Source: an uncultured bacterium
GTDB taxonomy: Bacteria; Patescibacteriota; Patescibacteriia; Patescibacteriales; UBA12465
DNA: 64,000 nt
Direction of reading: 5' to 3'
Assembly (NCBI GenBank): GCA_903945435.1
Contig: CAJAVM010000001.1
Span: 9,071-73,070, forward strand
The first letter of the stretch is position 1, and every line of letters begins with the position of its first letter. The notes under the pieces were generated by a model, which made no database searches, was not told the DNA's origin, and saw only the letters and a list, made by a program, of their open reading frames with translations. The position numbers and the translations under genes are program-made. Below are positions 14,903 to 38,867 of this stretch, piece after piece.

Positions 14903-16252
14903 TTATTTTATAAACTCAACTAAATCATTTAAATTTTTAATCTTGGTAATTTCTAACTTTCCAGATTTAACTTCAGTATTCGGGATAAGGGCGGCTTTAA
15001 ATCCTAAACGTTCAGCTTCTTTCAATCTTTCCTCTAATCTAAAAATATTTCTTACTTCCCCGCCTAAACCAACCTCTCCTAAAACTATGGTATCACGTTT
15101 AAATGTTTTATTTAAATGTGAAGAAATAATTGCTGCTACCGCCGCTAAATCAAGCGCCGGGTCAGAAATTTTTAATCCACCAACAACATTTAAAATTATA
15201 TCCTGAGCTAATAAGTTAATATTTGTACGCTTAGAAATAACCGTGCTTAAAACCTGTAATCTATTCAAATCAAATCCGCTCGCTTTTCTTTGCGGATAAC
15301 CGAAGACTGTTTTAGAAGCTAGTGCTTGGAGGTCTATCATAAATGGTCTAGTTCCTTCAATTACACAACCAAGAACCGACCCCGAAATATCACCAGCACC
15401 AGTTTCAATAAAAACCGCGCCTGGATTTTTTACTTCCTTAAACCCGAGACTCGTCATCTCTAAAACTCCAAGTTCATTAACCGAACCAAAACGATTTTTA
15501 GTAGAGCGGAGTAAAGAATAATTATGACTTGTTTCTGATTCTAAAGATAAAACAGTATCAACAATATGTTCTAAAGATTTAGGACCAGCAATCTGACCAT
15601 CTTTAGTAATATGACCAATCATTAAAACAACAATATCATTTTCTTTTGCTAACTCTAGAAACTTAACTGCCGTTGCTCTAATCTGGCTAATACCGCCAGC
15701 CTCAGAAATTACCTGACTTGAATATACTGTTTGAATAGAATCAACAATTAAAATATCAGGCCTTAAAGATTTAGCCGCTGATACAATCTTTTCAACATTC
15801 GTTTCTGAGATAAATTTTAAATTATCTAAATTACAATTTAATCTATCTAAACGGCTTTTAACTTGAGCCGCCGACTCTTCACCGCTAGCATAAATAACCG
15901 ACAAATTACTATCTTTAGAGCCAGCAATTTGAGCGACTAAAGTTGATTTACCTATCCCTGGTTCTCCACTCAAAAGCACTAGCGAGCCCGGCACTAATCC
16001 CCCGCCTAAAACTCTATCTACCTCTTCTAAGCCTGTTTTAAGGCGTTTTAAAGCGCTGGATTTAATACTACGCAAATCTAGAACTTTAGCGACGCCTATT
16101 TTTTTCATCTCCTCCGCTTTTTCTTGATGAGAATCTAAAATCTGTTCATTCAAAGTTCCCCAAGACCCACATTCCAAACAGCGCCCACTCCATTTAGGAG
16201 ATTGGGCGTCGCAGTTGGAGCAAGTAAAAATTGTTTTTATAGAATTTGCCAT
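14903..16252 (-). CDS. radA: DNA repair protein RadA/Sms
   Basis: N-terminal zinc ribbon CSNCDAQSPKWSGRCLECGSWG, Walker A GEPGIGKST, the KNRFG motif and a Lon-like C-terminal domain. Confidence 0.95.
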   Translation of the reverse strand: MANSIKTIFTCSNCDAQSPKWSGRCLECGSWGTLNEQILDSHQEKAEEMKKIGVAKVLDLRSIKSSALKRLKTGLEEVDRVLGGGLVPGSLVLLSGEPGIGKSTLVAQIAGSKDSNLSVIYASGEESAAQVKSRLDRLNCNLDNLKFISETNVEKIVSAAKSLRPDILIVDSIQTVYSSQVISEAGGISQIRATAVKFLELAKENDIVVLMIGHITKDGQIAGPKSLEHIVDTVLSLESETSHNYSLLRSTKNRFGSVNELGVLEMTSLGFKEVKNPGAVFIETGAGDISGSVLGCVIEGTRPFMIDLQALASKTVFGYPQRKASGFDLNRLQVLSTVISKRTNINLLAQDIILNVVGGLKISDPALDLAAVAAIISSHLNKTFKRDTIVLGEVGLGGEVRNIFRLEERLKEAERLGFKAALIPNTEVKSGKLEITKIKNLNDLVEFIK

Positions 16253-16260
16253 TATTTCAT

Positions 16261-16890
16261 TTATTTAACCCAGTATGCCTTATCAACTAGCCAATCACCA
16301 TTCACTTTCTGTAAAGAAATTTCAATATTTTGATTATAAGCCTTCCCCTCATTTGCTTGGCCAGTACTCTCTCGACGTTGGGTGGTTACAATAATTTTAG
16401 CAGTCCCGGCGACATCATCATATTCTGCGATCTTGCTTACAATTGCTTCAGTGATAATTCCATAATACTCATCCCCATCTTTAGCCTCCGCTCTAAGACC
16501 AGCAACATATTCATCGGCCCAAATCTTCATATCATCAGTCATGAAAAGATTTAAATCAGTAAAATTACTATAATCAGAATAATTTGAAAATGAACCTATG
16601 CGGCGAGCTATTAATTCAGCTAATTTAATTAAATCGGTCTGATTAGTTGTGTGAGCTTTTTCTTTGCTAGGATCATATAGCTGATAATTTCTATCTCTAT
16701 CTCCCGGCGTAGTAGTCGGAACCTCGTCCACGGATGGAGATGACTGAGCAGTTATCATTGGAGGGGTTTCAATTACTATTGGCTCTGGCGCTTTATTACC
16801 TACAAAAAAACTGAAATAGATAATGAGCCCAAGAATAATAAGACCTAACACAATCATGATTATTCCTAGCGACTTACGATTGGTTTGCAT
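16261..16890 (-). CDS. hypothetical bitopic membrane protein (possible VirB8-like NTF2-fold component)
   Basis: 209 aa: an N-terminal TM (LGIIMIVLGLIILGLIIYFSFF), a Pro/Thr linker and a ~130-aa globular C-terminus. It sits directly downstream of the VirB4-like gene. The VirB8 analogy rests on topology alone. Confidence 0.3.
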   Translation of the reverse strand: MQTNRKSLGIIMIVLGLIILGLIIYFSFFVGNKAPEPIVIETPPMITAQSSPSVDEVPTTTPGDRDRNYQLYDPSKEKAHTTNQTDLIKLAELIARRIGSFSNYSDYSNFTDLNLFMTDDMKIWADEYVAGLRAEAKDGDEYYGIITEAIVSKIAEYDDVAGTAKIIVTTQRRESTGQANEGKAYNQNIEISLQKVNGDWLVDKAYWVK

Positions 16891-16926
16891 ATGTTTAAAA
16901 ATTTATTAAATATCAAACTAGCTCAG

Positions 16927-18828
16927 TTATACTGAGCCTGATTCCTCTCTTTGACTATCATCAAATTCTTTTTTAGCTTCTTCAAGTTCTAATAACTGAC
17001 GTGGGTCAGAAGTAATCAGTTGGTCTTCAGTATATGAGGCAACTATTTTCATCGCTACGTGTTTATTTCCAGCAAAGAAGATTCCTTCTCCGATGCCGCA
17101 TTCTAATAATAAATATCTTTCACCCTCAGTTAAGATAAAGGTCTTCTGAACTAAATCTATCGCCGCTGGAGATTGTTTGAGTAATATCTGTAAAGAAGAA
17201 TTATTTACAATTGCTTGACCGTAAGGCGAGGTTAAAAAATCATTTACATCTTGAGTAATAGTCGTTACCCCGAGATAATATTTACGACAACGTTTAACAA
17301 GGGCAAAAATAAATTTAGCACTATCTTCATGTTGCATCATCCACCAGGCCTCATCAATAACTAAAATTCTTTTTTTCATTTCACTCCTTACAACATTCCA
17401 AATATAGTTAACAATGGTATAAATCGCAATCGGTCTAAGTTCATCTTCCAAATCACGCACAGAGAAGCAAACTAATTGATTATCCATCTCTACGTTAGTT
17501 GGTGAATTGAGTAAACCAGCAAAAGTTCCCTTAGTATATTTTCTTAACCTTAAAGCTAATTCTGCACCCCCTTCCATGCCGTCTAGAACTTGTTCTAAAT
17601 CAGACATGGTTGGCGGTTCTATTTTTGATAAATCAGAATCAGGAGTAATATCTTTTTTAGCGTATGATTCTAACAGGGCTCTATCAACAATTGAATCTTC
17701 ATCATAATTTAAAGTTCCCAACATTAAACGCACTAAACCTTTTAAAGTAATAACCGCGCTTCTGATAATATCTTTCGGTCTGGCTTCACCGCCAATTGAA
17801 CGAGGTAAATCAAAAGGATTAATTTTATTTTCACTAGATAAAGAAATATTAATATAAGTTCCTCCAACCGCTTCAGCTAAATGTTTATACTCGTATTCAG
17901 GATCAATAACGATAACATCTGTTCCTAACATTAAAGAACGTAAAATTTCTAATTTAATTGCATAACTTTTACCAGCACCAGAAGTCGCAAACACTACCGA
18001 ATTAGCATTCTGCAAAGAAAATCTATCAAATAAAATTAAACTATTGTTATGACGATTAATGCCATACAGAATTCCACGGTCACTAGTCAGCTCGCTAGAA
18101 ATGAACGGGAAAGACGACGCAACTGGTGAAGAATTCATGTTAAAAGCAATATACAATTCATCATTACCTAAAGGTAAGGTAGAATTAAACCCTTGTTCTG
18201 ATTGATAATAAACACGACGAGAATAAACTAAACGTGAACCGAAAATATCTTCAACTTGGTCAGAAACTCTATCTAAATCTTCCATATTCTCCGCATATAG
18301 AGTTACATATAGAGCAAATTGAAAAAACTTTTCTGTCCCCTGAGTAAGAGCATCGCGCAAATATTCAATATCACGCAAAGCTGTTTCTCGAAGCGGGTCA
18401 CGGGCTGCCCCCTTTTCTGCATCGGAAATAATTTGAGCCTCTAAAGTTCCTACTTTATTTTTTAATTGTTTTAAAATAATAGAACTAGAAATCGGATAAA
18501 AAAACATCGAAATATCGAAGGTCAGATTTAAATTAATAATCGGTGCAAACCAACCAATAGAAATATAACGCGGATAACTAATAACAAAAATGGTTCTTAA
18601 AAATTTATCTCCTAAATATAAATGATTAGGCTGAACTTTAAGACTAGCAGGAGAAATAATATCCTTCACCGATAAAACACCGCGACGGAAAGCCTTCTCT
18701 TCTTCAATAACTTCCCTAGTTAAAATCGGATCAGCTTCAATTTCCGGCCCAGCTTGCTGAGCATTAAAACTAACTGGGGTATTTAAAGTTATTTTATTTG
18801 GTTCTTCTCCTTTATTAAAATTTATCAT
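16927..18828 (-). CDS. virB4: VirB4/TrbE/PrgJ-type type IV secretion ATPase
   Basis: 633 aa. Walker A FATSGAGKSY, Walker B RILVIDEAWWMM and the downstream GVTTITQDVNDF are typical of VirB4-family ATPases. Confidence 0.85.
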   Translation of the reverse strand: MINFNKGEEPNKITLNTPVSFNAQQAGPEIEADPILTREVIEEEKAFRRGVLSVKDIISPASLKVQPNHLYLGDKFLRTIFVISYPRYISIGWFAPIINLNLTFDISMFFYPISSSIILKQLKNKVGTLEAQIISDAEKGAARDPLRETALRDIEYLRDALTQGTEKFFQFALYVTLYAENMEDLDRVSDQVEDIFGSRLVYSRRVYYQSEQGFNSTLPLGNDELYIAFNMNSSPVASSFPFISSELTSDRGILYGINRHNNSLILFDRFSLQNANSVVFATSGAGKSYAIKLEILRSLMLGTDVIVIDPEYEYKHLAEAVGGTYINISLSSENKINPFDLPRSIGGEARPKDIIRSAVITLKGLVRLMLGTLNYDEDSIVDRALLESYAKKDITPDSDLSKIEPPTMSDLEQVLDGMEGGAELALRLRKYTKGTFAGLLNSPTNVEMDNQLVCFSVRDLEDELRPIAIYTIVNYIWNVVRSEMKKRILVIDEAWWMMQHEDSAKFIFALVKRCRKYYLGVTTITQDVNDFLTSPYGQAIVNNSSLQILLKQSPAAIDLVQKTFILTEGERYLLLECGIGEGIFFAGNKHVAMKIVASYTEDQLITSDPRQLLELEEAKKEFDDSQREESGSV

Positions 18829-18838
18829 ATAGACTTAT

Positions 18839-19516
18839 CTAGTCGCCAAATTTCATTTTATCTAATTCAACTAATTGTTGATTTTTAGCAGTTTCCGGAT
18901 TGTATGTTTTATAATATAACTCAATTAAACTTTGAGTATCTAGTCTAGCTACCGCTACGCCCATTGATTCTAAGCCGCCAATTGCGCTATCTAAACGACG
19001 GTCTAACATTTCCTGATAACGATTAAATGTTTTTTCTTTTAACTTAATTACTGTTGCCGGTCTAAGAGCCTCTTTAATTAAACTAAAAAATCCTTTGCGC
19101 TTATCGGTTAACGGATCATACGGAACAACAACTAAAAATCTTTTACTCATAATTCTCCCCAAGGAAGTGAGTTCTTTAATATACTCAATATAATCAGCGG
19201 TTTGAAGTTTCAGTAATTTATTTGTTTGGGCTTTTTCTTTTTCTTTTAGATAATTTAAATAATTATCAATATCTAATTCTCTTGACTGAACAACTATTTG
19301 TAAAGTAAAACTTAGATTATTTAAAAACCTAACGTAAGAACTAATAACTGCATTTTGCTCGTCTTCACTTTTTAAAGCAAAGTTAATACTGGAAACAAGT
19401 AAAACTGCTCGCAGAGTTCCGTCTTTCATGACGACCGTATTATCTTTAATCTCAGCAATATCTAAATATTCCTGGGTAGAAACGCCTATTTTGTTGCCTG
19501 CTAATTTATTAGCCAT
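18839..19516 (-). CDS. T4SS-associated hypothetical protein
   Basis: 225 aa, between the PrgI-like and VirB4 genes. QEYLDIAEIKDNTVVMKDGTLRAVLLVSSINFALKSEDEQNAVISSYVRFLNNLSF..QIVVQS resembles the N-terminal region of Gram-positive VirB4-type proteins. Confidence 0.4.
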   Translation of the reverse strand: MANKLAGNKIGVSTQEYLDIAEIKDNTVVMKDGTLRAVLLVSSINFALKSEDEQNAVISSYVRFLNNLSFTLQIVVQSRELDIDNYLNYLKEKEKAQTNKLLKLQTADYIEYIKELTSLGRIMSKRFLVVVPYDPLTDKRKGFFSLIKEALRPATVIKLKEKTFNRYQEMLDRRLDSAIGGLESMGVAVARLDTQSLIELYYKTYNPETAKNQQLVELDKMKFGD

Positions 19517-19525
19517 AAAAAAAAT

Positions 19526-19948
19526 TTATTCACCACGATATCGCCCTTTAGTATCAACAATTAGGGCAACTTCGGCTAAGCGAGATTTTTTATAATATTC
19601 TTTTGGTTCTGGTTTACGTTCAATTTTTGTAACAACATCAATATTTTTTTCTTTATTATTCATGATTGTATTATTATTCCAAACTCTTAACCTTGGTCTT
19701 CTTAAGGTTTGAGTTGCATTCAAAAGAAAAAAATGAAAAGGTCGACCGTTAACTTTTACGAATGCAAACAAAGTAGCAATAATAAAAACAATAATGGCAA
19801 TTGTCAAAAAAAGAGCAAAATCAAATAAGCGATAACTAATTCCGATTACTAAAGCGCTTCCTAAAAATATAACAAACTGACGAGTAGTAATCGGTCCAAT
19901 AATTTTACTTTCAATATCTATAAATTGTGGAACGGTAAATTGTTGCAT
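19526..19948 (-). CDS. PrgI-family (VirB3-like) membrane protein
   Basis: 140 aa. MQQFTVPQFIDIESKIIGPITTRQFVIFLG followed by two TM segments is the PrgI-family pattern of Gram-positive conjugation systems. Confidence 0.7.
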   Translation of the reverse strand: MQQFTVPQFIDIESKIIGPITTRQFVIFLGSALVIGISYRLFDFALFLTIAIIVFIIATLFAFVKVNGRPFHFFLLNATQTLRRPRLRVWNNNTIMNNKEKNIDVVTKIERKPEPKEYYKKSRLAEVALIVDTKGRYRGE

Positions 19949-19954
19949 AATAAC

Positions 19955-21364
19955 TTAGAAAATCAATTTACTATTAAGATTCATAATTGCTTCAATCTCT
20001 GCTAATGTTAGGCCTTCCTGTTTATTTTTCTCACGCTTTTCTATAGCTTCTTTAAGCGGCAAGTTAGAAATAACTGCTTCCTGAACTATGTGTAAATATA
20101 AACGGCTAACCGGACTCTTACGCCAAGCACTAATTCCAGCAATCATTTTTTCATAACCGTCTTTTTCTAATAATTTGATTTTATTAAAAATTTTAACAGT
20201 AATCTCTTCAGGAGTTTTACCTAAACGACGAAAATTAACTAAATCTAAAAATTGAATTTCTTCCATTGGTCCCATTATTTTAGGAGCAGGTTTAACATCG
20301 TGCATGATTGGGCGACTAGAACTAGGCGCCACATCTCCTAAAATAGATTTTCTCGCAACAACCGGTCTAGGAGGAACTATAGTTGAAACTACCGGTATTG
20401 CAGCACTTATAGGCGGTTTAGTATCGGCAAATATTTTTTTTATAAAACTATTATTTTCTGGTTTACGGACAATTGGTTTTTGTGGATCAGTCGGAGTCCA
20501 TTTTGCAACAACCGGTTCCTTTACAACTTGAACTGGTTTTTCTACCAAAGGTGTAATTGGAGTTACGACTGGAGCCGAAGTTTTAACAGGATTCAAAATT
20601 GCATCAGGGGTAGTTTCGGAGATAGGTTGCTTAACTGCTCCCTGAGTAATCGGAGCGGCGATTCTTTTTGTTTCCCCGGATGCTAAAGCCCTTTTTAAAT
20701 CATATTCTACAATCGGATTAGAAAGACTATTTACTTTAGGAGTCGGTATAGCGCCTCCATCAGAAGCAGAAACAATTTTATCTAAACGAGTTAATGGAGC
20801 GACGCTGTTTACTAACGATGAGCTTGGAATTTCATCATATTTGAATTTATTACTATCACAAACCTTCAACACCCTATCAATTTCAAGCACGCTAAGATTT
20901 AAACCGCCAGTAGCAATATCTTTTGCAAGAGACGCCCTAGTATCAATACGACTGCGCACTCCCCTTAGATATATGGCTAATATTTTATTTAATCGTTCTA
21001 TTAAAAATTCACTCGCCAAAACTAGGCCAGCTTCTTTAATTAAAATATTTATATCTTTAGATAAATCTAACGAACGACGTTCGGTAGATAAGCCAACATA
21101 ATCAGAAACGTTGATAAAAATTTTTTCCTTGAGCTCTTGCGTAATTTTTTCTGCCTGCTCAGGAGTTAGCCCAAATTCTCCCACAAAGATTGAAGACAAA
21201 TCTTTCAAAGATAAACCCTTAATCATCACTTTCATCACAATCATCGCTAAATCAACTCGATAACGGCTCTCAATTTCAGCTAAAGAAGCCATCGCTTCTT
21301 TCGAAGAAACCTTATCTTTTAAGTCCTTTGGCAAACTGTTAAATTGTTGTAGATAGTCAAACAT
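19955..21364 (-). CDS. hypothetical protein with central Pro/Val-rich linker
   Basis: 469-aa ORF with helical N- and C-terminal domains joined by a PVVTPITPLVEKPVQVVKEPVV...-type low-complexity region. It is the first gene of the T4SS-like block. Confidence 0.55.
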   Translation of the reverse strand: MFDYLQQFNSLPKDLKDKVSSKEAMASLAEIESRYRVDLAMIVMKVMIKGLSLKDLSSIFVGEFGLTPEQAEKITQELKEKIFINVSDYVGLSTERRSLDLSKDINILIKEAGLVLASEFLIERLNKILAIYLRGVRSRIDTRASLAKDIATGGLNLSVLEIDRVLKVCDSNKFKYDEIPSSSLVNSVAPLTRLDKIVSASDGGAIPTPKVNSLSNPIVEYDLKRALASGETKRIAAPITQGAVKQPISETTPDAILNPVKTSAPVVTPITPLVEKPVQVVKEPVVAKWTPTDPQKPIVRKPENNSFIKKIFADTKPPISAAIPVVSTIVPPRPVVARKSILGDVAPSSSRPIMHDVKPAPKIMGPMEEIQFLDLVNFRRLGKTPEEITVKIFNKIKLLEKDGYEKMIAGISAWRKSPVSRLYLHIVQEAVISNLPLKEAIEKREKNKQEGLTLAEIEAIMNLNSKLIF

Positions 21365-21480: not shown

Positions 21481-22419
21481 CTACAAAGTAGTTATTGGCC
21501 GACTTTGAGTAATATAGAATTTTCCCTTCTCATAAGCCCACTCAATATCGCAAGGAAATTTATAATGTTGTTCAATAGCTAGACAAACTTTAGCTAGTTC
21601 AATTATCTGTTTTCCGGTGAGCTTCTGCTTAGCTTGAGCTGATTTAAGAACCGGGACCCATTTAATCCCTTTGCCAGGCGCTTTAACTATTTTGCGCTCT
21701 TGTTCAGAGATATTAATATCAATAATATCCATCTCTTTTTTACCTAAAACGTATGAATCCGGCGTTACTGATCCAGAAACAATGGCTTCTCCCAACCCAT
21801 ATCCTGCTTCAATAATCATTTGATTTCTATCTTGAGTAACTGGATGAACCGTAAAAGCAATTCCAGAAATTTCAGAATCAACCATTTTTTGAACGACAAC
21901 CGCAACACTGACCTTAGTTTTCAACATCTTTTTCTCATGACGATAGAAGATGGCTCGCGGAGTAAATAAACTCGACCAACATCTTTTTACATTATCGAGT
22001 AAAGTTTTTTCAGTTGTGTTTAAATATGTTTCTAATTCTCCAGCCCAAGAAGCAGCTGACGAATCTTCCGCTGTAGCGCTAGAACGAACAGCAACATATG
22101 GTGCTTTTAATTTTTTGAATTCTTTAACAATATCTAAAGATAAATCTTTAGGCATACTAACGCTCCTAATTAAAGCACGAATCGAGGATGAGGCGCCATC
22201 AACCGAGTTAACGTCTTTATAATTAACTTTTTTAAGTTGTGATTCTAATTCTTGAGTTAAATCAGTTTCTTCCAAAAACCTATCAAAAGCCTCAGCTAGA
22301 ATAACAAATCCAGGAGGAACTTTTAACCCCGCCTGAGTCATTTCTCCAAGCGATGCCCCTTTACCGCCAGCAATAGCAGCATCTTTTTTACCTATCTGAG
22401 AAAATGGTTTGATTAACAT
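21481..22419 (-). CDS. stand-alone PPDK_N-type ATP-grasp nucleotide-binding domain protein (PEP synthase N-terminal domain only)
   Basis: 312 aa. GGKGASLGEM, VPPGFVI, VAVRSSATAEDS..ASWAGE, VAVVVQKMV..SGIAFT, EAGYGLGEAIVSG and CDIEWAY..GKFYITQSRPIT give a full PF01326-like motif series. The protein stops where a swivel domain would begin. Confidence 0.9.
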   Translation of the reverse strand: MLIKPFSQIGKKDAAIAGGKGASLGEMTQAGLKVPPGFVILAEAFDRFLEETDLTQELESQLKKVNYKDVNSVDGASSSIRALIRSVSMPKDLSLDIVKEFKKLKAPYVAVRSSATAEDSSAASWAGELETYLNTTEKTLLDNVKRCWSSLFTPRAIFYRHEKKMLKTKVSVAVVVQKMVDSEISGIAFTVHPVTQDRNQMIIEAGYGLGEAIVSGSVTPDSYVLGKKEMDIIDINISEQERKIVKAPGKGIKWVPVLKSAQAKQKLTGKQIIELAKVCLAIEQHYKFPCDIEWAYEKGKFYITQSRPITTL

Positions 22420-22495: not shown

Positions 22496-24304
22496 TTAAC
22501 TAATAACATCAACTTTTCCATGAGTCGCATCGACATCAATAATCATTCCATCTTTTAAAATTTTAGTTGCAATCTTTGTTCCCACAACACAGGGAATCCC
22601 CAGTTCACGTGAAATAATGGCTGCATGACAAGTAATCCCGCCAACATCAGTTACTATCGCTGAAGCTTTTTTAATAGCGGGTATTAAATCGGGAGTAGTT
22701 GCAACCGAAATTAAGATATCACCATCCTTCATCTTCACCATATCCGCTATCACATTAATCACTTTGGCTTCCCCGCGCGCTCTTCCAGGAGATGCGCAAT
22801 CACCAGCTAAAAGTTTAGTATCTTTTATTTCTTCTTTTAAAATATTTAATTTTGAAATAAAAACTTTTGCTTTATCACCAGTTAGAAATACATCCGTTTT
22901 TGGTTTTTTGCTTGAATAATAAATACTAAAACTATATCTTTCGTTAAGCATTTCGGCGGAAATCTGCTCGCCCCTTAACATTTTCGATAATTCCTCGGGG
23001 CTTAAGTAACGAACCTGTCGCAAAGACAAATAACGACGTCTTCCTACCTCACGATAAACATTTTCTAAAACAGAAATTGCACAAAATAAAGCATCTTTTC
23101 TAGCTCCCTTGGTAAAAACCAAATCTCTAGCAAACTTCAAAATTCCTAAATGCTCAAAGTCGATAATTAATTTTTTAGCTAACTCGGCCTGTCGTTTTTC
23201 TGTTTTTAATTTATTTTCTTCTATTTCTTGCAAAGCTTTCGCAGGATTTATATTTTGTCTAATGAGACTACTTAAAATATCAATAAAATATTCCTGATTC
23301 CATCCTGGTCCCACCATTCCATAACCCAGAAAACCAAAATCGTCAGTATGCTTTTTTAATCTAGCGGCTATTTTTTTATCAACCTTATTAATATCTAAGG
23401 CAACAATGCGTGATTCCGTTAAACTAAAATATTTTTTTAATTTATCATCCGCTAATATATCTTTCAAAATCAGAAGAAGCGCTTTATATTCTTCAGCTGA
23501 TTTGGATGGCTGTAAAGGTGTAGTTAAAATTGAAAATACATCCCCCATTGATAATCCGGCCCCTTTTACTTTATCATCCAAATAATTCATCAAGTATTTC
23601 GAAAAGGTCCCATCACCAAAGTCTAAAACGGTTTGCGGAATATGAAGCAAATGGAGATTGAGATAAACTTTAAAAAATTTATCAAACGTATTGGCTAATT
23701 CAACGTCAGAATAAGCCTTTAAATTTGTACTTTTTAATTTTTCCGAGGCTTGATAAAGTTTTTGAGCATTTGTATTTAAATCATCAATATATTTTTCTCT
23801 CCAACTGGCGTCACTTTTAACACGAGCGAATATTTCTGTGCTTAAATCATAAAAATCTTTTTTATTCGCTAAAAGCTGACAAAAATTATTTTCAAAAATA
23901 GTTACTAAGGTATTTAAACTAGTCTTAAAATTATAAAGCCGACTAAACTTATTTGCCATTCCTTCATTCCAGGCTGGAGAAGTAAAAAGCGGATAATAAT
24001 TAGGCATTTCTTCCAAACAAAAAATCTCTGGACCATTTTTACCAGCATTATATTTTTTAAACATCGACGCTAGGTCTAGGAAAAATTCATTTTTTTGATT
24101 AACAAAAAAATATTTTTTATTATCAACAATTTCATTAATTAAAATACCTCCCTTTACTAAATTAGCCAGTTCTTTATGAACATTAGCCTGATCTAAGTTT
24201 AAAGTTTTTACAATTTCGCGTGCATAATATCTCTTCTCGATATTTGCAAAGAAGAAAGAAAGGATGTCTAAGCGGGCCTGTGAACTAATTAAATAATTTA
24301 GCAT
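22496..24304 (-). CDS. winged-HTH + helical central domain + C-terminal PEP-utilizer phosphohistidine swivel domain protein (paralog P1)
   Basis: 602 aa. The N-terminus [13 protein letters not shown]...[30 protein letters not shown] is ArsR/TrmB-like. The C-terminus is [59 protein letters not shown]. Confidence 0.85.
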
Positions 24305-24310
24305 ATATTG

Positions 24311-24360
24311 TATATAATTTATGTTTTATAAATTATATAAATGTATTGTTTTATTGTCAA
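24311..24360 (-). promoter_or_regulatory. consensus promoter of P1 overlapped by a perfect 12-bp inverted repeat (candidate operator)
   Basis: Minus strand: TTGACA (24360-24355), 17 nt, TATAAT (24337-24332). The palindrome TATATAATTTAT-gtttt-ATAAATTATATA spans 24311-24339 and covers the -10 element and the transcription start region. Confidence 0.6.
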
Positions 24361-24400
24361 TACTTATTGTAAAAAATACAATAAAATAAACAGCTAACCA

Positions 24401-26281
24401 TTAAGCTCTCTCAATTACTTTTACAATTCCCTTATCGGCATCAACTTCTACTAAATCCCCATCGTGGAGTGCTTTAGTAGCGATTTTAGTCGCAATTACG
24501 CATGGTTTACGCATTTCTCGGGCAACAATAGCGGCATGGCTAGTTACCCCGCCCTGATCGGTTACAAAAGCGGCCGCCTTTTTCATAGCTGGAACTAAAT
24601 CAGGTTGAGTAGAGATAGAAACCAAAATATCTCCTTCTGCCATTTTTTTCATATCAGAAATTACATTAACAATTCTAACTCTCCCTCTAGCTTGGCCGCG
24701 ACAACCACATTGTCCCTTAAGTTCAGATGTTTCGACCTCCTCATGCTTTTGAATATATTTTTCAGTAATAGTTTTTGCCGCTGCGCCACTATAAAATAAT
24801 TCAGTATCTTTAGCTGTATAGTAAACACAAAACTCAACTCGTCTTTTTACTTCAGCCTTATCTATTAAGCCATCAAACAACGCCGCCTTAATCTCCGAGG
24901 ACTTCATAAAACGTAACTCTTTTAATTTTACACCAACTCGGTCAGCAATTTCCTCTAAAATAAACGTTGTTTTATAAAGAGCAAACAATTGAGCATAACG
25001 ACGATAGGTTTTAGTAACCATAAAATCTCCCCAAGCAGAAAAAAAGCGCTGAATATCTTTGGTTAAATTTAACTTTTTAATTAAAGCTCCTCTCTCTTGC
25101 AATGTCTTGGCTGTATGAGCTTCTTGGTCCGCAAATGTTTCGGCTAAATGTGCATCGCCATTAACCATTCTGACTAATTCCTTCAAATAATGTTCAAAAT
25201 CATAAACACCCTGCTCTTCTGTATAAATAAATTTGGTATAAAAATATTTATGATAATGGTCTTCTAGCTGCGACATTATTTCTGGGGAAATTTTTGCCTT
25301 TAGCCCACGTACTATTTCAGAAAATTTCGCTTCATACTCTTCACTGTGTGTATAGAGACCAAAAAATTTAACATCTTCTTCTTTAAATTTTCTAAATAAC
25401 TCTTTAAAAATGGCCAGTTGCGCCGGATTTTGCTGAACCATAATCCCAATCTTCATTAGGTTGTCCTGCTCCTCTTTTAAACGTGAGGCTTTATCGGGCT
25501 GAGTTAAGAGAGAAAGATATTCTTCAATATTATCTTCAACTACTCCTAATTTCTTCAAAATGCTTTTACCGCGATTGGTTAAGTTATCACCAAACATATC
25601 AGCGGCAACTGGAATCCAACCATAGCGATAATAATCGAGATGAATATCTTCATGTTTTTGATAATACTCCCAAATTTTTTCTTTACTTAATTTTTCCAAG
25701 CCACTTTCCGGAATATCTTCAACTACTTCATTAAGTTTATCTGAATAAAATCTAATTTTAGAATTTACTTCTTCCATAAAATCAATATCCCCCAAAAATT
25801 TATCAACTAAATGTTCACCACCTTCATGGGCGTCAGCCTTATCAAAATAAAAACAAAGATTATAACCATGATAAACACCTACTATCTGTTTATAAGCATG
25901 CCCACCCGGTTCTTGAAAGCCGTTAGTAAAACAATAGAAAGGGATAGCCATAAACCAAGGGCTAATATTTACTATTTCCTCTGCTAGAAACCAATCGTGC
26001 TTAAACATTTTTTCAAAATCGCGTCCATTATTTTTTGCTAGTAATAATTTAAGCTCATCGATTGCTTGATAATTTTTATTTAAAATATAATATTTTTTCT
26101 TCCCAACAGTCTCCTGGCTTACGATTCCCTCTTCAATTAAACTAGTTAATTCGCGTGAAACATTAGCGCTATTTTTTTCCAAGGAATTAGCTATTTCACC
26201 TAAATAAAACTTAGTTCCTTCGGATTGGCTCAGAAGTTCCAATATTTCATAGGTAGTTTGTGATTTGAATAAATTTTTCAT
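24401..26281 (-). CDS. winged-HTH + helical central domain + C-terminal PEP-utilizer swivel domain protein (paralog P2)
   Basis: 626 aa. N-terminus TTYEILELLSQSEGTKFYLGEIANSLEKNSANVSRELTSLIEEGIV. C-terminus GDILVSISTQPDLVPAMKKAAAFVTDQGGVTSHAAIVAREMRKPCVIATKIATKALHDGD. Confidence 0.85.
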   Translation of the reverse strand: MKNLFKSQTTYEILELLSQSEGTKFYLGEIANSLEKNSANVSRELTSLIEEGIVSQETVGKKKYYILNKNYQAIDELKLLLAKNNGRDFEKMFKHDWFLAEEIVNISPWFMAIPFYCFTNGFQEPGGHAYKQIVGVYHGYNLCFYFDKADAHEGGEHLVDKFLGDIDFMEEVNSKIRFYSDKLNEVVEDIPESGLEKLSKEKIWEYYQKHEDIHLDYYRYGWIPVAADMFGDNLTNRGKSILKKLGVVEDNIEEYLSLLTQPDKASRLKEEQDNLMKIGIMVQQNPAQLAIFKELFRKFKEEDVKFFGLYTHSEEYEAKFSEIVRGLKAKISPEIMSQLEDHYHKYFYTKFIYTEEQGVYDFEHYLKELVRMVNGDAHLAETFADQEAHTAKTLQERGALIKKLNLTKDIQRFFSAWGDFMVTKTYRRYAQLFALYKTTFILEEIADRVGVKLKELRFMKSSEIKAALFDGLIDKAEVKRRVEFCVYYTAKDTELFYSGAAAKTITEKYIQKHEEVETSELKGQCGCRGQARGRVRIVNVISDMKKMAEGDILVSISTQPDLVPAMKKAAAFVTDQGGVTSHAAIVAREMRKPCVIATKIATKALHDGDLVEVDADKGIVKVIERA

Positions 26282-26285
26282 ATAT

Positions 26286-26350
26286 TTGTCTATCAGACAA
26301 TAAAGATTGTCTTACAAACAAATAATATCGTAAAATAGCGAAAGAGTCAA
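26286..26350 (-). promoter_or_regulatory. promoter of P2 (TTGACT-17-TATTAT) with downstream AGACAAT-N4-ATTGTCT palindrome (candidate operator)
   Basis: Minus strand: -35 at 26350-26345 and -10 at 26327-26322. A perfect 7-bp inverted repeat lies at 26295-26312, with a third TTGTCT half-site at 26286-26291, between the -10 element and the ATG at 26281. Confidence 0.55.
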
Positions 26351-26399: not shown

Positions 26400-26428
26400 T
26401 TGACAAATTACTCATAATATTATATAAT
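26400..26428 (+). promoter_or_regulatory. sigma-70 consensus promoter (TTGACA-17 nt-TATAAT)
   Basis: TTGACA 26400-26405, spacer aattactcataatatta, TATAAT 26423-26428. A ~90-nt leader follows, containing a CCCGTA-ggt-TACGGG hairpin just before the AAAGGA ribosome-binding site. Confidence 0.75.
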
Positions 26429-26519
26429 ACAGGGATTGAACATTAAAAATTTCTATTATATAAACCAGGCAAAAAGCCAAAACGACCTCTGGTCCCGTAG
26501 GTTACGGGGCTCTTAAAGG

Positions 26520-29292: not shown

Positions 29293-30222
29293 TTACGCCC
29301 TTATTTTATCAGCAACATTCATTGAACTTTTAATCGCATCTTCAAAAGAGATACGGCGTCTAATTATTTTTTGTATTGTCTCTTTAGCAACTTCGATTTC
29401 TCTTTGTTCACCATTATCCTGATAAGCTAATTTAATAGTTTGTTCTTGGCCTTTATTTAGAATATTAATATGTATACCTTCCGTTTCCGTCCAACCATTT
29501 TTTAAGTCAGCAATAAATTCATCACGCGCTTTTGCCCCAGATTGCTCTTTGATAACCTCGGCCAAAAACGGCTCAGCGACCGATTGATGAGTCGCTAAAT
29601 ATCTTTCCAGATGACTCGGAAATTCCTCGCCCTCTTTTTTCTTATCAATAGCTAAACGATTAAAATTATTTCCAACCTTACTATATTTATCAACAATCTC
29701 AGCAATGTTTCCCGCTTGACGTAAATAGGTTGTAGAAATATTATCACCTTTTGTAATCGCCAACATATCACTTTCATTAGCGAGCCAATCCATGTACCTG
29801 CCAGCCTTAAAGGCGGCCATTCCTTCCGCTTCAATTGGTCCATCAAGATTAAAAGCCAAACGTTCATCACGATATATTTTTTTACCAACTTTAATTTCCT
29901 CAGATATTTTTTTATCCATTTCTTCCAAACTATCATTAACCCCAATATTTTCCTCATTAGCTCCCATAATTAACATCGCTGTTTCTGCAGTTCTATCCAT
30001 CGGACTAGCGCCAGCAACTGCAACATTAATATCGGGATTCATTTTTAATCCTTTATCATGTGCCAACTCCCTACCTTCAGGTGTTAATAGTAATTCTGAG
30101 TTTAGTCTATTAGGATCATTCTCTTTTTTACTATGACGGAAGATTTCTAACTTAATCTCCGTTGTTAGCGGTTTTTCGGCTTCCGCTTGTTTTTCCGGAG
30201 TAAATTTAAATGAGTTAAACAT
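29293..30222 (-). CDS. histidine phosphatase superfamily (PGAM-like) protein H3
   Basis: 309 aa. IFRHSKKE (RH motif), LLLTPEGRELA, GASPMDRTAETA and a late ATHQS. It is embedded between paralogs P4 and P3. Confidence 0.65.
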   Translation of the reverse strand: MFNSFKFTPEKQAEAEKPLTTEIKLEIFRHSKKENDPNRLNSELLLTPEGRELAHDKGLKMNPDINVAVAGASPMDRTAETAMLIMGANEENIGVNDSLEEMDKKISEEIKVGKKIYRDERLAFNLDGPIEAEGMAAFKAGRYMDWLANESDMLAITKGDNISTTYLRQAGNIAEIVDKYSKVGNNFNRLAIDKKKEGEEFPSHLERYLATHQSVAEPFLAEVIKEQSGAKARDEFIADLKNGWTETEGIHINILNKGQEQTIKLAYQDNGEQREIEVAKETIQKIIRRRISFEDAIKSSMNVADKIRA

Positions 30223-30227
30223 ACAAT

Positions 30228-31685
30228 TTATTTTTTTAATATTTTAATACTTCCTTTATTTGCATCTACCTCTAGCCAGTCATTATCTTTTATTTCTTTA
30301 CTTACATGAGCTACGCCAACAACACAAGGTATTTTCATTTCCCGACTAATTACAGAAACGTGGGCAGTAATACCGCCTTCTTCCGCTACAATAGCGGCGA
30401 CTCTAGATAAAATCGGTACAAAATCTGGCCCAGTATTCATCACGACTAAAATATCTCCTTTATTTACTTTGTGAAAATCTTTCGGCGAATGAACAACTTT
30501 AGCTCTTCCACTCACCTTACCGACGCAAGCAGTTCGCCCCTTAAATTCGCCAGTAATATTTTTAGAGTAGGTTAAAAACTTCTTTTCATATTTATCAGCT
30601 AATGCGCCAACATATCTTGCTCTAATTTTGCCAGTTAAACTAACAAAAACCGAATGCCTTTGATAAATTAGAGCTTCTTTTTTATTATATTTACCAGTTA
30701 ACGCTAATTTGATAGCGTCTAAATGACTTAAGTCTTTGATAAAACCGGCTTTAAGTCCTGTACGTTTAGATATTTCCTGAAAAATAACTTCTCCAAATAA
30801 CTGCAGTTTATTAGTCGAAAATTTAAAATAATCTTTTAAATAACTTACCTCTCCGGCAACTTTGGCTACCTTTTTATCGGCTGAAGATAATCTAGTAATC
30901 ACCAATCGTTTTTCTTTTTGTTCTTTTTTGAAATTATCTTTAAGAGCTTGTAAAAGTTTAACCGGATTACGTTTAATTAACGCTGATAATCTATTTTCAT
31001 AACTCGCTAGAGTTGCAAGCGGCTCATCATAGTAACCGAGCGTTAACCAATAAAATTTATTATAAATTTTATTGAGTTCTTTTTTGTAGATATCTGATTT
31101 TATATTAATGGTTTTGTTTTTTACCTTACTAGCTAAAGTTAATAAAGCAATATTTTCTTGAGTTGCAAAACTTTGACGAGAAGAAGCTGATAAAAGACTG
31201 CTATAATCTGCTGTTTTTAAATGACCAGATGAATTTTTAAAATATTCCAATACGCCGCGGTCTATCAAACGCAAAGTCATAGCTGCTTTATGAAGCTCCT
31301 GAGTTTGTAAATAATAAAAAGCTAAAAGTTCACTTAATTTTTTATCATCTAAAGCAACGATGTCCAAAGAACTAATATGTTTTATGGCTCGTTCACGAAT
31401 TTCAGTTAAATAATTTTCTAGCCTGATTAGTAGTTCAGGTTTTTTAGAAAATTTATCTAACACCGATAGAAAATGCCCCTCATCTTTCAAGGCGTAGTAA
31501 ATTTGAAACTTACTATCCTTGTATTCAACGATAGTAATCGTATTAATAGGAAATAAATTATGTTTTTGCCAACAATAGTTAGCTACTACCTCGGCAATGT
31601 AAAGATGCGAGGAGCGACTCGCTTCAAGAATTATATCATAGCCAGTTAAATCAAATATTCTATTATCCAGCGCGCCTTTTTTCAT
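30228..31685 (-). CDS. helical domain + C-terminal PEP-utilizer swivel domain protein (paralog P4, most divergent)
   Basis: 485 aa. C-terminus GDILVVMNTGPDFVPILSRVAAIVAEEGGITAHVSVISREMKIPCVVGVAHVSKEIKDND. Confidence 0.8.
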   Translation of the reverse strand: MKKGALDNRIFDLTGYDIILEASRSSHLYIAEVVANYCWQKHNLFPINTITIVEYKDSKFQIYYALKDEGHFLSVLDKFSKKPELLIRLENYLTEIRERAIKHISSLDIVALDDKKLSELLAFYYLQTQELHKAAMTLRLIDRGVLEYFKNSSGHLKTADYSSLLSASSRQSFATQENIALLTLASKVKNKTINIKSDIYKKELNKIYNKFYWLTLGYYDEPLATLASYENRLSALIKRNPVKLLQALKDNFKKEQKEKRLVITRLSSADKKVAKVAGEVSYLKDYFKFSTNKLQLFGEVIFQEISKRTGLKAGFIKDLSHLDAIKLALTGKYNKKEALIYQRHSVFVSLTGKIRARYVGALADKYEKKFLTYSKNITGEFKGRTACVGKVSGRAKVVHSPKDFHKVNKGDILVVMNTGPDFVPILSRVAAIVAEEGGITAHVSVISREMKIPCVVGVAHVSKEIKDNDWLEVDANKGSIKILKK

Positions 31686-31686
31686 A

Positions 31687-32988
31687 TTATCTTTTTAATA
31701 TTTTAACGATTCCGTGATTGGCATCGACTTCTATCAAATCACCGTCTTTAATTACCGTAGTCGCAATTTTAGTCCCAATAACACAGGGCTTTTTAAGCTC
31801 TCGAGCAATAATAGCAGCGTGACAAGTTAGCCCACCCTCGTTAGTAACAAAGGCGGCTGCTTTTTTCATAGCCTGCAAAAAATCAGGCGAGGTCATATAT
31901 GTAACTAGGATATCTCCTTTTTGTACTTTAGACACTTCTTTAATGCTAAGTACTACTTTAGCAATTCCCTTAACGCAACCTAGCTGAGCAGTCATCCCTT
32001 TAATCTCAGAAGTTTCTTCTTTACTAACTTGTTTAGAAAAAATATTACCATCCATCATGCAGACCTTCCCTTGATAATCAACACATGACATATTACTAGA
32101 ATATTTTTGTAGTTTCCCTGATATTAAATCGCTAAACTGATAATATTTTAAATCTTGAAAACTCATCCCGTATTTTTTAGCTGCTTCTTTCAAAATTGGA
32201 CGAGATAAAAAAATCAATTCATAGAAAGCATCGGTTCTTCTCGTTCTTAAATAAACTAATTCCCTCGCCTCCTTATATATGTTTACTAAAGGTTTTGGGA
32301 TTTCTGGATAAATATGATTTTTATGTTTTTTGATATTAGATTTATGCTCTTTTAACTCCTCTAAACTATAGGGACGCGCAAAACCATCGCGAGCTCTCAT
32401 CCAAGAATATTTTTTTCTAATTTCTTTCAAATCAATTCCGGTACGCATTTCCGCCTCCATCAGTTCAAGTGCATTTTTTTTATCAGGATAAGCCGCATCA
32501 CCAATATATTTATCAATATCGGTTGAAATATATTTAGCAGTTTTGGTTTTCATTTCCTTCCATAGAACGTGTTCCAACATATGTGCCGACCAAATATATG
32601 AACCTGTTTTATGAAAAATATCATCTAGTATTAACAGCTTCTTGTTAAGTGGAGTCTTTTTATCGCGACAAAGAGAAACTACTTGGGCATAACTCTTTTG
32701 ATAAAATATTTCTAAGCTATCAGATATTTCAGAAATACGATGGGCTTTAAGCCAATCTTTTAACGTTGGGACTATATCGTCAAATACTTCATCGGACCAA
32801 TACCAATGGCCCTCAGTAAAAACAAAGGATTTTAGCTCCCAGCCCTTAAGCCCAATTTTTGTAAATGCTTCTTTTGAAGCAGAGCCTGCTAAAAGAGACA
32901 TCATAAAAGCATAAAAATTACGCTTTAACCAAAGCTCCCATTTATACTTAAGGACTTGTTTTAAAACTTGTTGGGATTTTTTAGCCAT
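31687..32988 (-). CDS. helical domain + C-terminal PEP-utilizer swivel domain protein (paralog P5)
   Basis: 433 aa. YLRTRRTDAF motif. C-terminus GDILVTYMTSPDFLQAMKKAAAFVTNEGGLTCHAAIIARELKKPCVIGTKIATTVIKDGD. Confidence 0.85.
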   Translation of the reverse strand: MAKKSQQVLKQVLKYKWELWLKRNFYAFMMSLLAGSASKEAFTKIGLKGWELKSFVFTEGHWYWSDEVFDDIVPTLKDWLKAHRISEISDSLEIFYQKSYAQVVSLCRDKKTPLNKKLLILDDIFHKTGSYIWSAHMLEHVLWKEMKTKTAKYISTDIDKYIGDAAYPDKKNALELMEAEMRTGIDLKEIRKKYSWMRARDGFARPYSLEELKEHKSNIKKHKNHIYPEIPKPLVNIYKEARELVYLRTRRTDAFYELIFLSRPILKEAAKKYGMSFQDLKYYQFSDLISGKLQKYSSNMSCVDYQGKVCMMDGNIFSKQVSKEETSEIKGMTAQLGCVKGIAKVVLSIKEVSKVQKGDILVTYMTSPDFLQAMKKAAAFVTNEGGLTCHAAIIARELKKPCVIGTKIATTVIKDGDLIEVDANHGIVKILKR

Positions 32989-37257: not shown

Positions 37258-37671
37258 TTATTTAACTCTCATGAGGCTCGACTTATATTTTTCCGGATGA
37301 TGAGCCGTAAGCCTTTTGATTTCACAAAAAAAGCGCTCATTAGCAATAAATTGCTCAAGCGCTTCTAAATCTACTTGTTGATCATAACCTAAACAAATAA
37401 CATCAGGACGTAATTCTTTTACTAACTGCCATCTATCAACTGAATTTCCAAGTATCACTCGCCCTTTTATTCCCAACTCCTTAAGGGCTTCCTCTACTTT
37501 TTGACGACGAGTTTCTTCGCCTTCCTGAGGTAAATGCTTTTTTATTTTTAAAACATTCTTATCACGAGCGACAATAGCGATAAGCTCATCCCCAAAAACT
37601 CCGGCCTGAGATAAATAAGAGAGATGGCCGGGATGAAGATTATCAAAAGTTCCAAACGCCATGACGCGCAT
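37258..37671 (-). CDS. cytidylyltransferase-like family nucleotidyltransferase (RibL/TagD-like)
   Basis: 137 aa. FGTFDNLHPGHLSYL is the (H/T)xGH nucleotidyltransferase signature, and the size fits the minimal Rossmann-like fold. Confidence 0.65.
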   Translation of the reverse strand: MRVMAFGTFDNLHPGHLSYLSQAGVFGDELIAIVARDKNVLKIKKHLPQEGEETRRQKVEEALKELGIKGRVILGNSVDRWQLVKELRPDVICLGYDQQVDLEALEQFIANERFFCEIKRLTAHHPEKYKSSLMRVK

Positions 37672-37678
37672 AGGCTTA

Positions 37679-38830: not shown

Positions 38831-38867
38831 ATTTTTTATTTTATTTTTTCAAATTTAAATTTCAAGA

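Follow-up and report, generated by a model that had tools for sequence, protein, structure and literature searches.

A dikinase H subunit with a winged helix and a conserved operator at its own promoter: a predicted enzyme-repressor fusion in Patescibacteria

Two adjacent genes, here named P1 and P2, raise the question of whether a protein that joins a DNA-binding fold to a phosphohistidine swivel domain is a transcription factor switched by phosphorylation or an enzyme subunit that represses its own gene. The genes lie in a 64,000-nucleotide stretch of DNA (the window) from an uncultured bacterium of the Patescibacteriota (lineage UBA12465; contig CAJAVM010000001.1, positions 9,071 to 73,070). 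Eight paralogous proteins of the window carry the swivel domain PF00391 at the C-terminus in the Pfam scan, and P1 and P2, which align with each other from end to end at 28% identity (BLAST), are among them. An earlier interpretation of this DNA (the sequence-only reading) had taken both proteins for autoregulators whose DNA binding is coupled to the phosphorylation state of the swivel histidine, each acting on a palindrome in its own promoter. Our answer, which we hold to be rather probable, is that P1 and P2 are H subunits of a two-component dikinase resembling the rifampin phosphotransferase RPH-Lm that have gained a winged helix, and that P2 is an autorepressor and P1 probably likewise.

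AlphaFold2 models of P1 and P2, built on alignments of their orthologs, reached predicted local distance difference test (pLDDT) values of 90.3 and 85.9, respectively. In both models, the N-terminus shows a helix-helix-helix-strand-strand topology, in which the third helix is the recognition helix and the hairpin is the wing, followed by a long helix; in P2, the helices comprise residues 8-19, 27-34, 38-50 and 74-93, and the strands residues 54-59 and 62-67. When the N-termini were compared with known structures by Foldseek, SmtB, CzrA, HlyU and SqrR were found with target TM-scores of 0.6-0.72 and root-mean-square deviations of 2.2-2.8 Å, the N-terminus of P2 matching SmtB and CzrA (target TM-score 0.6-0.69) and that of P1 matching HlyU and SqrR. 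Hidden Markov models of winged-helix proteins matched P1 (PDC-M05A, E = 3e-13; Csa3, E = 7e-7) as well as P2 (PDC-M05A, E = 8.6e-12; also Csa3), and CasR was among the models matched by both N-termini. The N-terminus of P2 also matched an ArsR/CzrA profile (E = 0.003), and its Pfam matches to HTH_5 (22.4 bits with a cutoff of 22), MarR and IclR were all weak. The recognition helices are near-invariant within each family (xANVSREL in P2 and QANVHKEL in P1), and residues N40, R43 and E44 of P2 are invariant across 38 orthologs. Based on these models and matches, both N-termini are predicted to be winged-helix DNA-binding folds. This agrees with the sequence-only reading, and so does the confinement of the winged helix to P1 and P2, where it forms an N-terminal extension of approximately 90 residues in two of the eight aligned swivel paralogs.

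Two other assignments of the N-termini were rejected. Although the fold is ArsR-like, P1 and P2 were not assigned to the metal sensors of the ArsR/SmtB type, since their N-termini lack the Cys and His ligands: the clusters of Cys, His, Asp or Glu that make up the alpha-3N and alpha-5 sites are missing, with no Cys in the N-terminal 90 residues of either protein, one His in P1 and none in P2. A defence-system context was also discarded, as PADLOC matched only the winged-helix domain and the other proteins match no defence family.

The remaining part of the two proteins resembles an enzyme in several respects. First, the swivel domain was identified by Pfam with E = 2e-23 in P1 and 3.6e-25 in P2, and the motif T/S-x-x-G-G-x-x-x-H, which has been described for two-component dikinases (PMC12167813), is present as GGITCH560 in P1 and GGVTSH582 in P2 and is invariant in the ortholog alignments. 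Second, the best Foldseek match of the full models was RPH-Lm (E = 7e-14 for P1 and 6e-12 for P2, the latter to 5FBU), its entries 5FBU and 5HV1 being the top entries with a query TM-score of about 0.5. The family profile of P1 spans residues 529-866 of RPH-Lm (E = 3e-22); the central domain of P1 alone found no match among the PDB sequences, while the profile search succeeded. Third, Arg666 and Lys670 of RPH align in the profile comparison with the invariant K399 and K403 of P1 and K424 and R428 of P2. Arg666 is needed for the second phosphotransfer, and Glu667 is also essential in RPH (PMC4844700). A Lys or Arg occupies the Arg666 position in all eight paralogs, and the Lys670 position in P1 and P2. 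Finally, the central domains of P1 and P2 show a mean column identity of 61%, with many invariant aromatic and charged residues.

RPH consists of a single chain with ATP-grasp, rifampin-binding and swivel domains in that order (PMC4844700), and its characterised two-component homologues HpeHI, CreHI and PpsAB are divided into an H component, with the rifampin-binding-like and swivel domains, and an I component, the ATP-grasp domain (PMC12167813). A candidate for the I component is encoded two genes downstream of P2: this stand-alone ATP-grasp protein contains PF01326 only and matches just the N-terminal third of the models for phosphoenolpyruvate (PEP) synthase, RPH and PigC. We suggest from these comparisons of sequences and models that the non-DNA-binding part of P1 and P2 corresponds to the H component in a two-component small-molecule dikinase of RPH-like type and not to a free-standing phosphocarrier, and that catalysis by P1 and P2 is plausible. 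The central-plus-swivel architecture that the sequence-only reading had noted is indeed common to all eight paralogs, and it is recast here as the dikinase H component. We rejected an identity of P1 and P2 as PEP synthase or pyruvate phosphate dikinase (PPDK), because PEP synthase, PPDK and Enzyme I match only their swivel domain, with NCBIfam scores far under the cutoffs, and the three domains are not in one chain; PF02896, the PEP/pyruvate-binding TIM barrel, was absent from the Pfam scans. Likewise, PRD-containing regulators controlled by the phosphotransferase system (PTS) were discarded because Pfam scans of P1 and P2 gave no PRD domain, and no PTS component was found among the 26 window open reading frames (ORFs) scanned.

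Here, we need to consider that P1 and P2 could be dedicated transcription factors switched by phosphorylation of the swivel histidine, with the central domain as a docking or sensor module, the ATP-grasp protein as the kinase, and the neighbouring proteins of the histidine-phosphatase family removing the phosphoryl group in the manner of SixA, a branch-1 member of the histidine-phosphatase superfamily that dephosphorylates phosphohistidine. The winged helix, the swivel histidine and the operator described below are all conserved, as this proposal would have it, and RPH Glu667 is not conserved in either protein. Moreover, the cluster contains three histidine-phosphatase-superfamily-like genes (Table 1), one of which is divergent from P2 in five related loci. 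These genes, however, fit either a phosphohistidine phosphatase role or the dephosphorylation of phosphorylated small-molecule products, on which they could equally act, as is the case in the Hpe pathway (PMC12167813). The proposal is also at odds with the enzyme-like conservation of the central domains, and with the retention of the basic residues of the RPH phosphotransfer site, which are kept as in the six paralogs without a winged helix; nor does any result tie the phosphorylation state to DNA binding. Identity as an H component leads to a simpler model, in which an enzyme subunit would repress its own gene in the manner of BirA and RbkR, and by this analogy a dedicated phosphorylation-gated transcription factor would not be required. 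We therefore regard the dedicated factor as unlikely.

The strongest evidence on the regulatory side came from the promoter of P2. The promoters and palindromes of both genes read on the minus strand at every coordinate that the sequence-only reading had listed, including the P2 palindrome AGACAAT-CTTT-ATTGTCT at 26295-26312 and a further half-site at 26286-26291 (AGACAA on the gene strand). A fourth half-site, TTGTTT on the gene strand at 26316-26321, had been overlooked, and the palindrome noted earlier is the inner half-site pair of a 36-bp operator. On the gene strand, this operator consists of the palindromes TTGTTTGTAAGACAA (26307-26321) and TTGTCTGATAGACAA (26286-26300), whose centres are 21 bp apart; it begins just past the -10 element and leaves 4 nt to the ATG. 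The P2 leader is short (about 30 nt) and A/U-rich, and consists mostly of the operator; in one related locus with a long P2 leader (L088), the leader is flanked by CCCCGTTAA-like repeats.

We compared 38 distinct orthologous P2 promoters (46-90% protein identity), setting aside the partial locus L131, which duplicates L091. When a match was defined as 18 or more of the 24 specified positions of the consensus TTGTYT-n3-ARACAA-n6-TTGYYT-n3-ARACAA, 34 of the promoters matched, two were weak (L089 and L123, with 16-17 positions), and two, one of them L119, contained no recognisable copy. Each of the 144 half-sites tabulated has G at position 3, and this conservation is matched by the near-invariant recognition helix xANVSREL. 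The operator extends from the -10 element to a point exactly 4 nt 5' of the ATG in 26 of the 38 promoters. The -35 (TTGAC-type) and -10 (TATTAT-like) hexamers stand at equivalent positions in most of the orthologous promoters. A weight matrix calculated from the orthologs without the window scored 26286-26300 at 19.2 bits and 26307-26321 at 17.7 bits, ranking them first and second in the 64 kb; the best other sites of the window (13.0 and 11.8 bits) lie within coding sequence and in the shuffle range. The operator accompanies the P2 gene even where the neighbouring genes are unrelated, which is the main argument for binding by the gene's own product, and repressors typically bind where it lies, between the -10 element and about +33. 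Since 21 bp correspond to two helical turns, two P2 dimers would share one face of the helix. Repression of the P2 gene by its own product is thus a well-supported inference from comparative data.

The sequence-only reading had ranked the P2 palindrome as more convincing than that of P1. Within the window alone this ranking does not stand, as the P2 palindrome with its 7-bp arms has a probability of about 0.036 within its own 69 nt, and palindrome placements with such arms were observed 85 times in the window compared with 33-56 times in block shuffles. Across orthologs the ranking is upheld, because it is the P2 element whose sequence is conserved. The conservation in orthologous promoters, which had been set as a check on the palindrome, was also borne out.

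Could these elements be bound by neither P1 nor P2? They would then be sites of another regulator or nucleic-acid structures (a leader hairpin in P2, and a read-through hairpin or cruciform in P1), and the winged helix would serve for dimerisation or protein contacts. In agreement with this possibility, the inner half-sites of P2 could pair over 7 bp into a hairpin (-6.0 kcal/mol) where the mRNA begins, matching changes occur in both inner arms in L081 and L084, and the P1 palindrome described below is structure-like, its pairing being kept while its sequence and loop vary. However, the sequence of the P2 half-sites is conserved beyond pairing, and the likeness of half-sites 2 and 3 within a promoter was not above the likeness between promoters (P = 0.16). 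The hairpin energy is ordinary (z = -1.6), an Rfam search of the P2 element gave no match, and the first half-site abuts the -10 element and would not be transcribed. With sequence conservation, covariation, energy and Rfam all against it, the RNA-hairpin reading of the P2 element was rejected. The P2 motif also stays beside its gene where the neighbourhood is unrelated, so that P2 itself is the likely binder, and in P1 the left arm of the palindrome includes the -10 element. Altogether, we consider it improbable that P1 and P2 leave these elements unbound.

The promoter of P1 gave a different picture. Its A/T palindrome, TATATAATTTAT-AAAAC-ATAAATTATATA, overlaps the -10 element and is centred near the expected transcription start. 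Arms of 12 bp were reached by none of 300 composition-matched shuffles, and the palindrome is one of four perfect inverted repeats of at least 12 bp with short loops in the 64 kb. Among 13 orthologous P1 promoters, in which the -35 TTGACA is invariant, 12 contain a perfect inverted repeat of 8-18 bp that spans the -10 element and the region just 5' of the ATG (P 0.017 or lower compared with shuffles). Its arms vary (e.g., ATAATTTTCTT, AAGATTGATTAA and TGTATAAT), tracking variants of the -10 hexamer, and the loop ranges from 4 to 17 nt, while the recognition helix QANVHKEL is near-invariant. Since a dimeric winged helix with a fixed reading head would not tolerate such variation of arms and loop, the A/T palindrome is probably not the P1 operator, and we dropped it as the leading idea. 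The earlier proposal of two autoregulators is accordingly well supported for P2, which has a conserved operator at its own promoter from which repression is deduced, and is not supported for P1 as far as the A/T palindrome is concerned. Transcripts from the P1 promoter cannot form the hairpin because its left arm holds the -10 hexamer; the palindrome may instead function as a DNA element, or in transcripts that read through from the upstream paralog, which has the same orientation.

A better, though tentative, candidate for the P1 operator is the pattern TWGTA-n5-TACNA. It precedes the -35 element by 6-7 nt and keeps this place in 12 of the 13 promoters, with variable flanks. The site has TTGTT in L086 and a symmetric change, TAGTA..TACTA, in L100, and in the window the pattern occurs at two sites only, 24367-24381 being one of them. 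A possible second site starts 21-22 bp after the first and has the form TTGAC-n5-TACNA in several orthologs; it is weaker evidence, since its bases are shared with the -35 hexamer. The spacing of the two sites mirrors the layout of the P2 operator, but the assignment is less supported than that of P2. We also observed a 12-nt inverted repeat (24346-24357 and 24378-24389, 92% complementary, 20 nt apart) that brackets the upstream site and the -35 element, and ATTGT/ACAAT cores, which occur four times in the P1 promoter and also form the core of the P2 half-sites. It is very improbable that P2 is a master repressor of the P2-P1-ATP-grasp unit that also acts on TTGT-n7-ACAA in the P1 promoter, with P1 reading the variable palindrome by DNA shape: the P1 and P2 promoters do hold three of the window's four TTGT-n7-ACAA matches, and the recognition helices are alike (ANVSREL and ANVHKEL), but the upstream site of P1 scores below 9 bits with the P2 matrix, and P1 orthologs without an adjacent P2 gene retain their site (L085, L086 and L132).

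Based on these observations, we propose the following model for the enzyme-repressor H subunits. The ATP-grasp protein would use ATP to phosphorylate the swivel histidine of P2 (His582) and P1 (His560), and would do the same for the six other H-type paralogs. The swivel domain would then hand the phosphoryl group to a small molecule held in the central domain. P2, probably as two dimers on one helix face, would bind the pair of TTGTYT-n3-ARACAA sites at its own promoter and thereby block its own transcription. Because no terminator-like site was found in the window between P2, P1 and the ATP-grasp gene, repression by P2 may also lower read-through into the latter two genes. P1 probably represses its own promoter by way of TWGTA-n5-TACNA sites, over the -35 element and further upstream.

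Several points weigh against this model. The Glu667 position of RPH is not kept, being occupied by G400 in P1 and T425 in P2, so that catalytic competence is not established. A plausible separate promoter precedes P1 as well as the ATP-grasp gene, which makes their control by read-through from P2 uncertain. Furthermore, the model does not account for the large palindrome over the P1 -10 element, and the P1 operator was assigned from 13 promoters, with a motif that is A/T-rich. The regulon of P2 may be the gene itself alone, as no other strong sites were found in the window.

What might release such a repressor from DNA is suggested by known enzyme-repressors. BirA is a biotin ligase as well as the repressor of the bio genes, and its repression is driven by the reaction intermediate, which builds up when there is little acceptor. 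Both BirA and RbkR, an archaeal riboflavin kinase and regulator (PMC5397151), likewise carry an N-terminal winged helix on an enzyme and use a palindromic operator at genes of their own pathway. Their enzyme folds are unrelated to that of P1 and P2, and they have no covalent phosphoenzyme intermediate; the likeness is in the mode of action only and places P1 and P2 in neither family. By analogy, the release signal is most likely the catalytic state of the enzyme, that is, substrate occupancy or a build-up of phosphohistidine when no acceptor is available, although this is speculative. A bolder version, which we consider doubtful, is that the phosphorylation state of the swivel histidine, set by the balance between loading by the ATP-grasp protein and discharge to the acceptor, directly gates operator binding by the winged helix; P1 and P2 would then be PTS-like flux sensors in one polypeptide, built from dikinase parts and specific to the candidate phyla radiation (CPR) and DPANN. 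If so, since the ATP-grasp gene lies downstream, the flux sensor would also set the supply of the common I subunit for the whole battery of paralogous kinases.

PRD regulators such as LicT, MtlR and LevR also depend on histidine phosphorylation, with a phosphotransfer chain reporting substrate flux. However, their PRD and EIIA/EIIB domains are phosphorylated by HPr or EIIB, whereas the module of P1 and P2 is a swivel domain of the Enzyme I/PPDK type. Regulators of the ArsR/SmtB, MarR and Csa3 types share with P1 and P2 the fold, the position of the recognition helix, probable dimers on short palindromes and autoregulation, but these regulators have a small sensor site or a CARF domain where P1 and P2 have a dikinase H subunit of about 530 amino acids as the effector part.

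When compared with the two-component enzymes HpeHI, CreHI and PpsAB of the phenylphosphate synthase type, P1, P2 and the ATP-grasp protein show the same H/I split in adjacent genes, the I component of those systems being a stand-alone ATP-grasp protein of about 310-340 amino acids, and HpeH can dimerise (PMC12167813). In contrast to the H subunits described there, P1 and P2 carry a DNA-binding domain, and one I gene is accompanied here by eight H paralogs. The host also differs, being a reduced-genome member of the Patescibacteria and not a degrader of aromatic compounds, and identity outside the swivel domain is low. RPH-Lm (5FBU, 5HV1; PMC4844700) aligns in its central helical and swivel domains, and like P1 and P2 it has basic residues at positions 666 (Arg) and 670 (Lys); its ATP-grasp domain stands at the N-terminus of the single chain, where P1 and P2 have the winged helix, and Glu667 is not shared. 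The likeness to RPH-Lm implies no link of P1 and P2 to rifamycins.

We then examined the distribution of the fusion. More than 100 full-length orthologs were found for P2, at 40-90% identity, and about 60 for P1, and nearly all of those with a named source come from metagenome-assembled genomes of Patescibacteria. A branch of proteins of about 536 amino acids has no winged helix. When 1.84 billion cluster representatives were searched exhaustively with residues 1-230 of P2, only 206 matches were obtained, and in about 15-20 clusters, with proteins of 590-626 amino acids, the match covers the winged helix and also the beginning of the central domain. These searches indicate that the winged-helix/dikinase fusion is rare and that it is restricted to CPR and DPANN lineages. 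The automatic annotation in IMG already describes some members as a swivel-domain protein plus an ArsR regulator, and we found no paper in the literature on winged-helix or helix-turn-helix fusions to swivel or dikinase domains. A metagenome scan with an alignment without the swivel domain did retrieve P2 orthologs. A scan of genome contigs with the full P2 alignment, in which generic swivel motifs served as patterns, retrieved distant swivel proteins and not orthologs, and its only useful find was a protein of 610 amino acids from a Candidatus Micrarchaeota archaeon (L006; JACRGC010000011.1, 5962-7794). This protein combines a winged helix with central and swivel domains, is P1-like (EEMPxxYP, FAKGFRKD and GGITSHAAIV), and has a second swivel paralog nearby, which suggests that CPR bacteria and DPANN archaea have exchanged the fusion.

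The gene order is kept among close relatives. At 67-90% identity, a winged-helix H gene is followed by the ATP-grasp gene and by type IV secretion-like genes. The ATP-grasp gene lies directly behind a winged-helix H gene or one gene further in L081, L082, L084-L086, L132 and L134. The gap between the two is 4-76 nt in six loci and the window, and in L085 a paralog intervenes. At 53-61% identity, the P2 ortholog stands alone. In the one such case checked (L087), an ATP-grasp ortholog of 318 amino acids has a longest contig of 831,406 bp, equal in length to the contig with P2; it is 73% identical compared with 61% for P2. The ATP-grasp orthologs are 73-95% identical and are more conserved than any H subunit, which fits one I subunit serving many H partners. 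The eight H-type paralogs of the window have divergent central domains, and the number of H paralogs varies between related loci from one to five or more within the fetched flanks. Taken together, these comparisons suggest a battery of kinases with different substrates that share one nucleotide-binding subunit.

To our knowledge, very few pairs of a transcription factor and its operator are known in the CPR, as almost none of its members have been cultured. P2 and its precisely defined 36-bp operator, derived from sequence alone, form a pair that is open to testing in vitro or in Escherichia coli. The two-component dikinases are extended here to reduced-genome episymbionts, to systems in which one ATP-grasp subunit has many substrate subunits, and to members with their own DNA-binding domain. 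P1 and P2 thus appear to be enzyme-repressor fusions built on the H subunit of a two-component dikinase. Should DNA binding depend on the catalytic state of the enzyme, they would represent a new wiring of metabolite flux to transcription; otherwise, they would be one more enzyme-repressor fusion of the BirA/RbkR kind.

Table 1. Genes, domains and promoter elements of the P1-P2 locus in window coordinates.
Feature	Coordinates	Strand	Remarks
P1 gene	22496-24304	minus	602 aa; winged helix, central domain and swivel; architecture like P2
P1 winged helix (residues 1-88)	24041-24304	minus	
P1 recognition helix	24152-24190	minus	
P1 His560 codon (swivel histidine)	22625-22627	minus	
P2 gene	24401-26281	minus	626 aa; more than 100 full-length orthologs
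P2 domains			winged helix, residues 1-93; centre like the rifampin-binding domain; phosphohistidine swivel, about 500-626
P2 winged-helix domain	26003-26281	minus	
P2 recognition helix SANVSRELTSLIE	26132-26170	minus	
P2 His582 codon (phosphocarrier histidine in GGVTSHAAIV)	24536-24538	minus	invariant in the P2 ortholog alignment
P1 promoter TTGACA-17-TATAAT	24332-24360	minus	12/12 consensus positions
P2 promoter TTGACT-17-TATTAT	26322-26350	minus	
P2 operator	26286-26321	minus	four half-sites; two 15-bp palindromes
P1 upstream palindrome TTGTATTTTTTACAA	24367-24381	minus	15 bp; candidate operator
Possible second P1 site, TTGAC-n5-AACAA	24346-24360	minus	over the -35 element
P1 A/T palindrome	24311-24339	minus	12-bp arms; 5-nt loop
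Stand-alone ATP-grasp (PPDK_N) protein, I component	21481-22419	minus	312 aa; PF01326, E = 6e-101
Six H-type paralogs without winged helix	27756-29267, 30228-31685, 31687-32988, 32990-34405, 34407-35747, 35754-37253	minus	PF00391 in each
His_Phos_1 gene interrupting the paralog array	29293-30222		
ORF with RHG motif, divergent from P2	26520-27116	plus	198 aa
His_Phos_1 gene, divergent from P2	27150-27689	plus	

No Shine-Dalgarno sequence was recognisable for P1 (24282-24310) or P2 (26282-26285). On the opposite strand, a perfect promoter (TTGACA-17-TATAAT, 26400-26428) precedes the ORF of 198 amino acids that is divergent from P2. The protein begins with an RHG motif (LIYLRHGKKDG) and contains GHTP close to the C-terminus; Pfam gave no match, and BLAST against the neighbouring His_Phos_1 protein gave a weak match around the second catalytic His (E = 0.019). 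From these motifs, it is possibly a divergent protein of the histidine-phosphatase superfamily. An ORF of 194-211 amino acids without a Pfam match stands in the equivalent position in L081, L082 and L084-L086. Upstream of the 198-aa gene, at about 26485-26515, we observed a GC-rich hairpin-like motif, CCCCGT(A/T)A(C/G)CTACGGGACCAGAG, which is conserved in L081, L082 and L084.

Directly behind the ATP-grasp gene, a type IV secretion-like set is encoded on the minus strand at 14903-21364, consisting of PrgI-like, TraC-like and VirB4/TraG-type ATPase genes and a gene for a protein of 446-541 amino acids without a Pfam match, and this order is kept in L081, L082, L084-L086 and L132. Immediately 5' of the paralog array, and in the same orientation (37258-41098, minus strand), are genes for a cytidylyltransferase-like protein, S-adenosylmethionine synthetase, S-adenosylhomocysteine hydrolase and a PfkB-family kinase, and the same genes precede the array in L082. 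These upstream genes may hint that the substrates of the dikinases are nucleoside or methyl-cycle metabolites.

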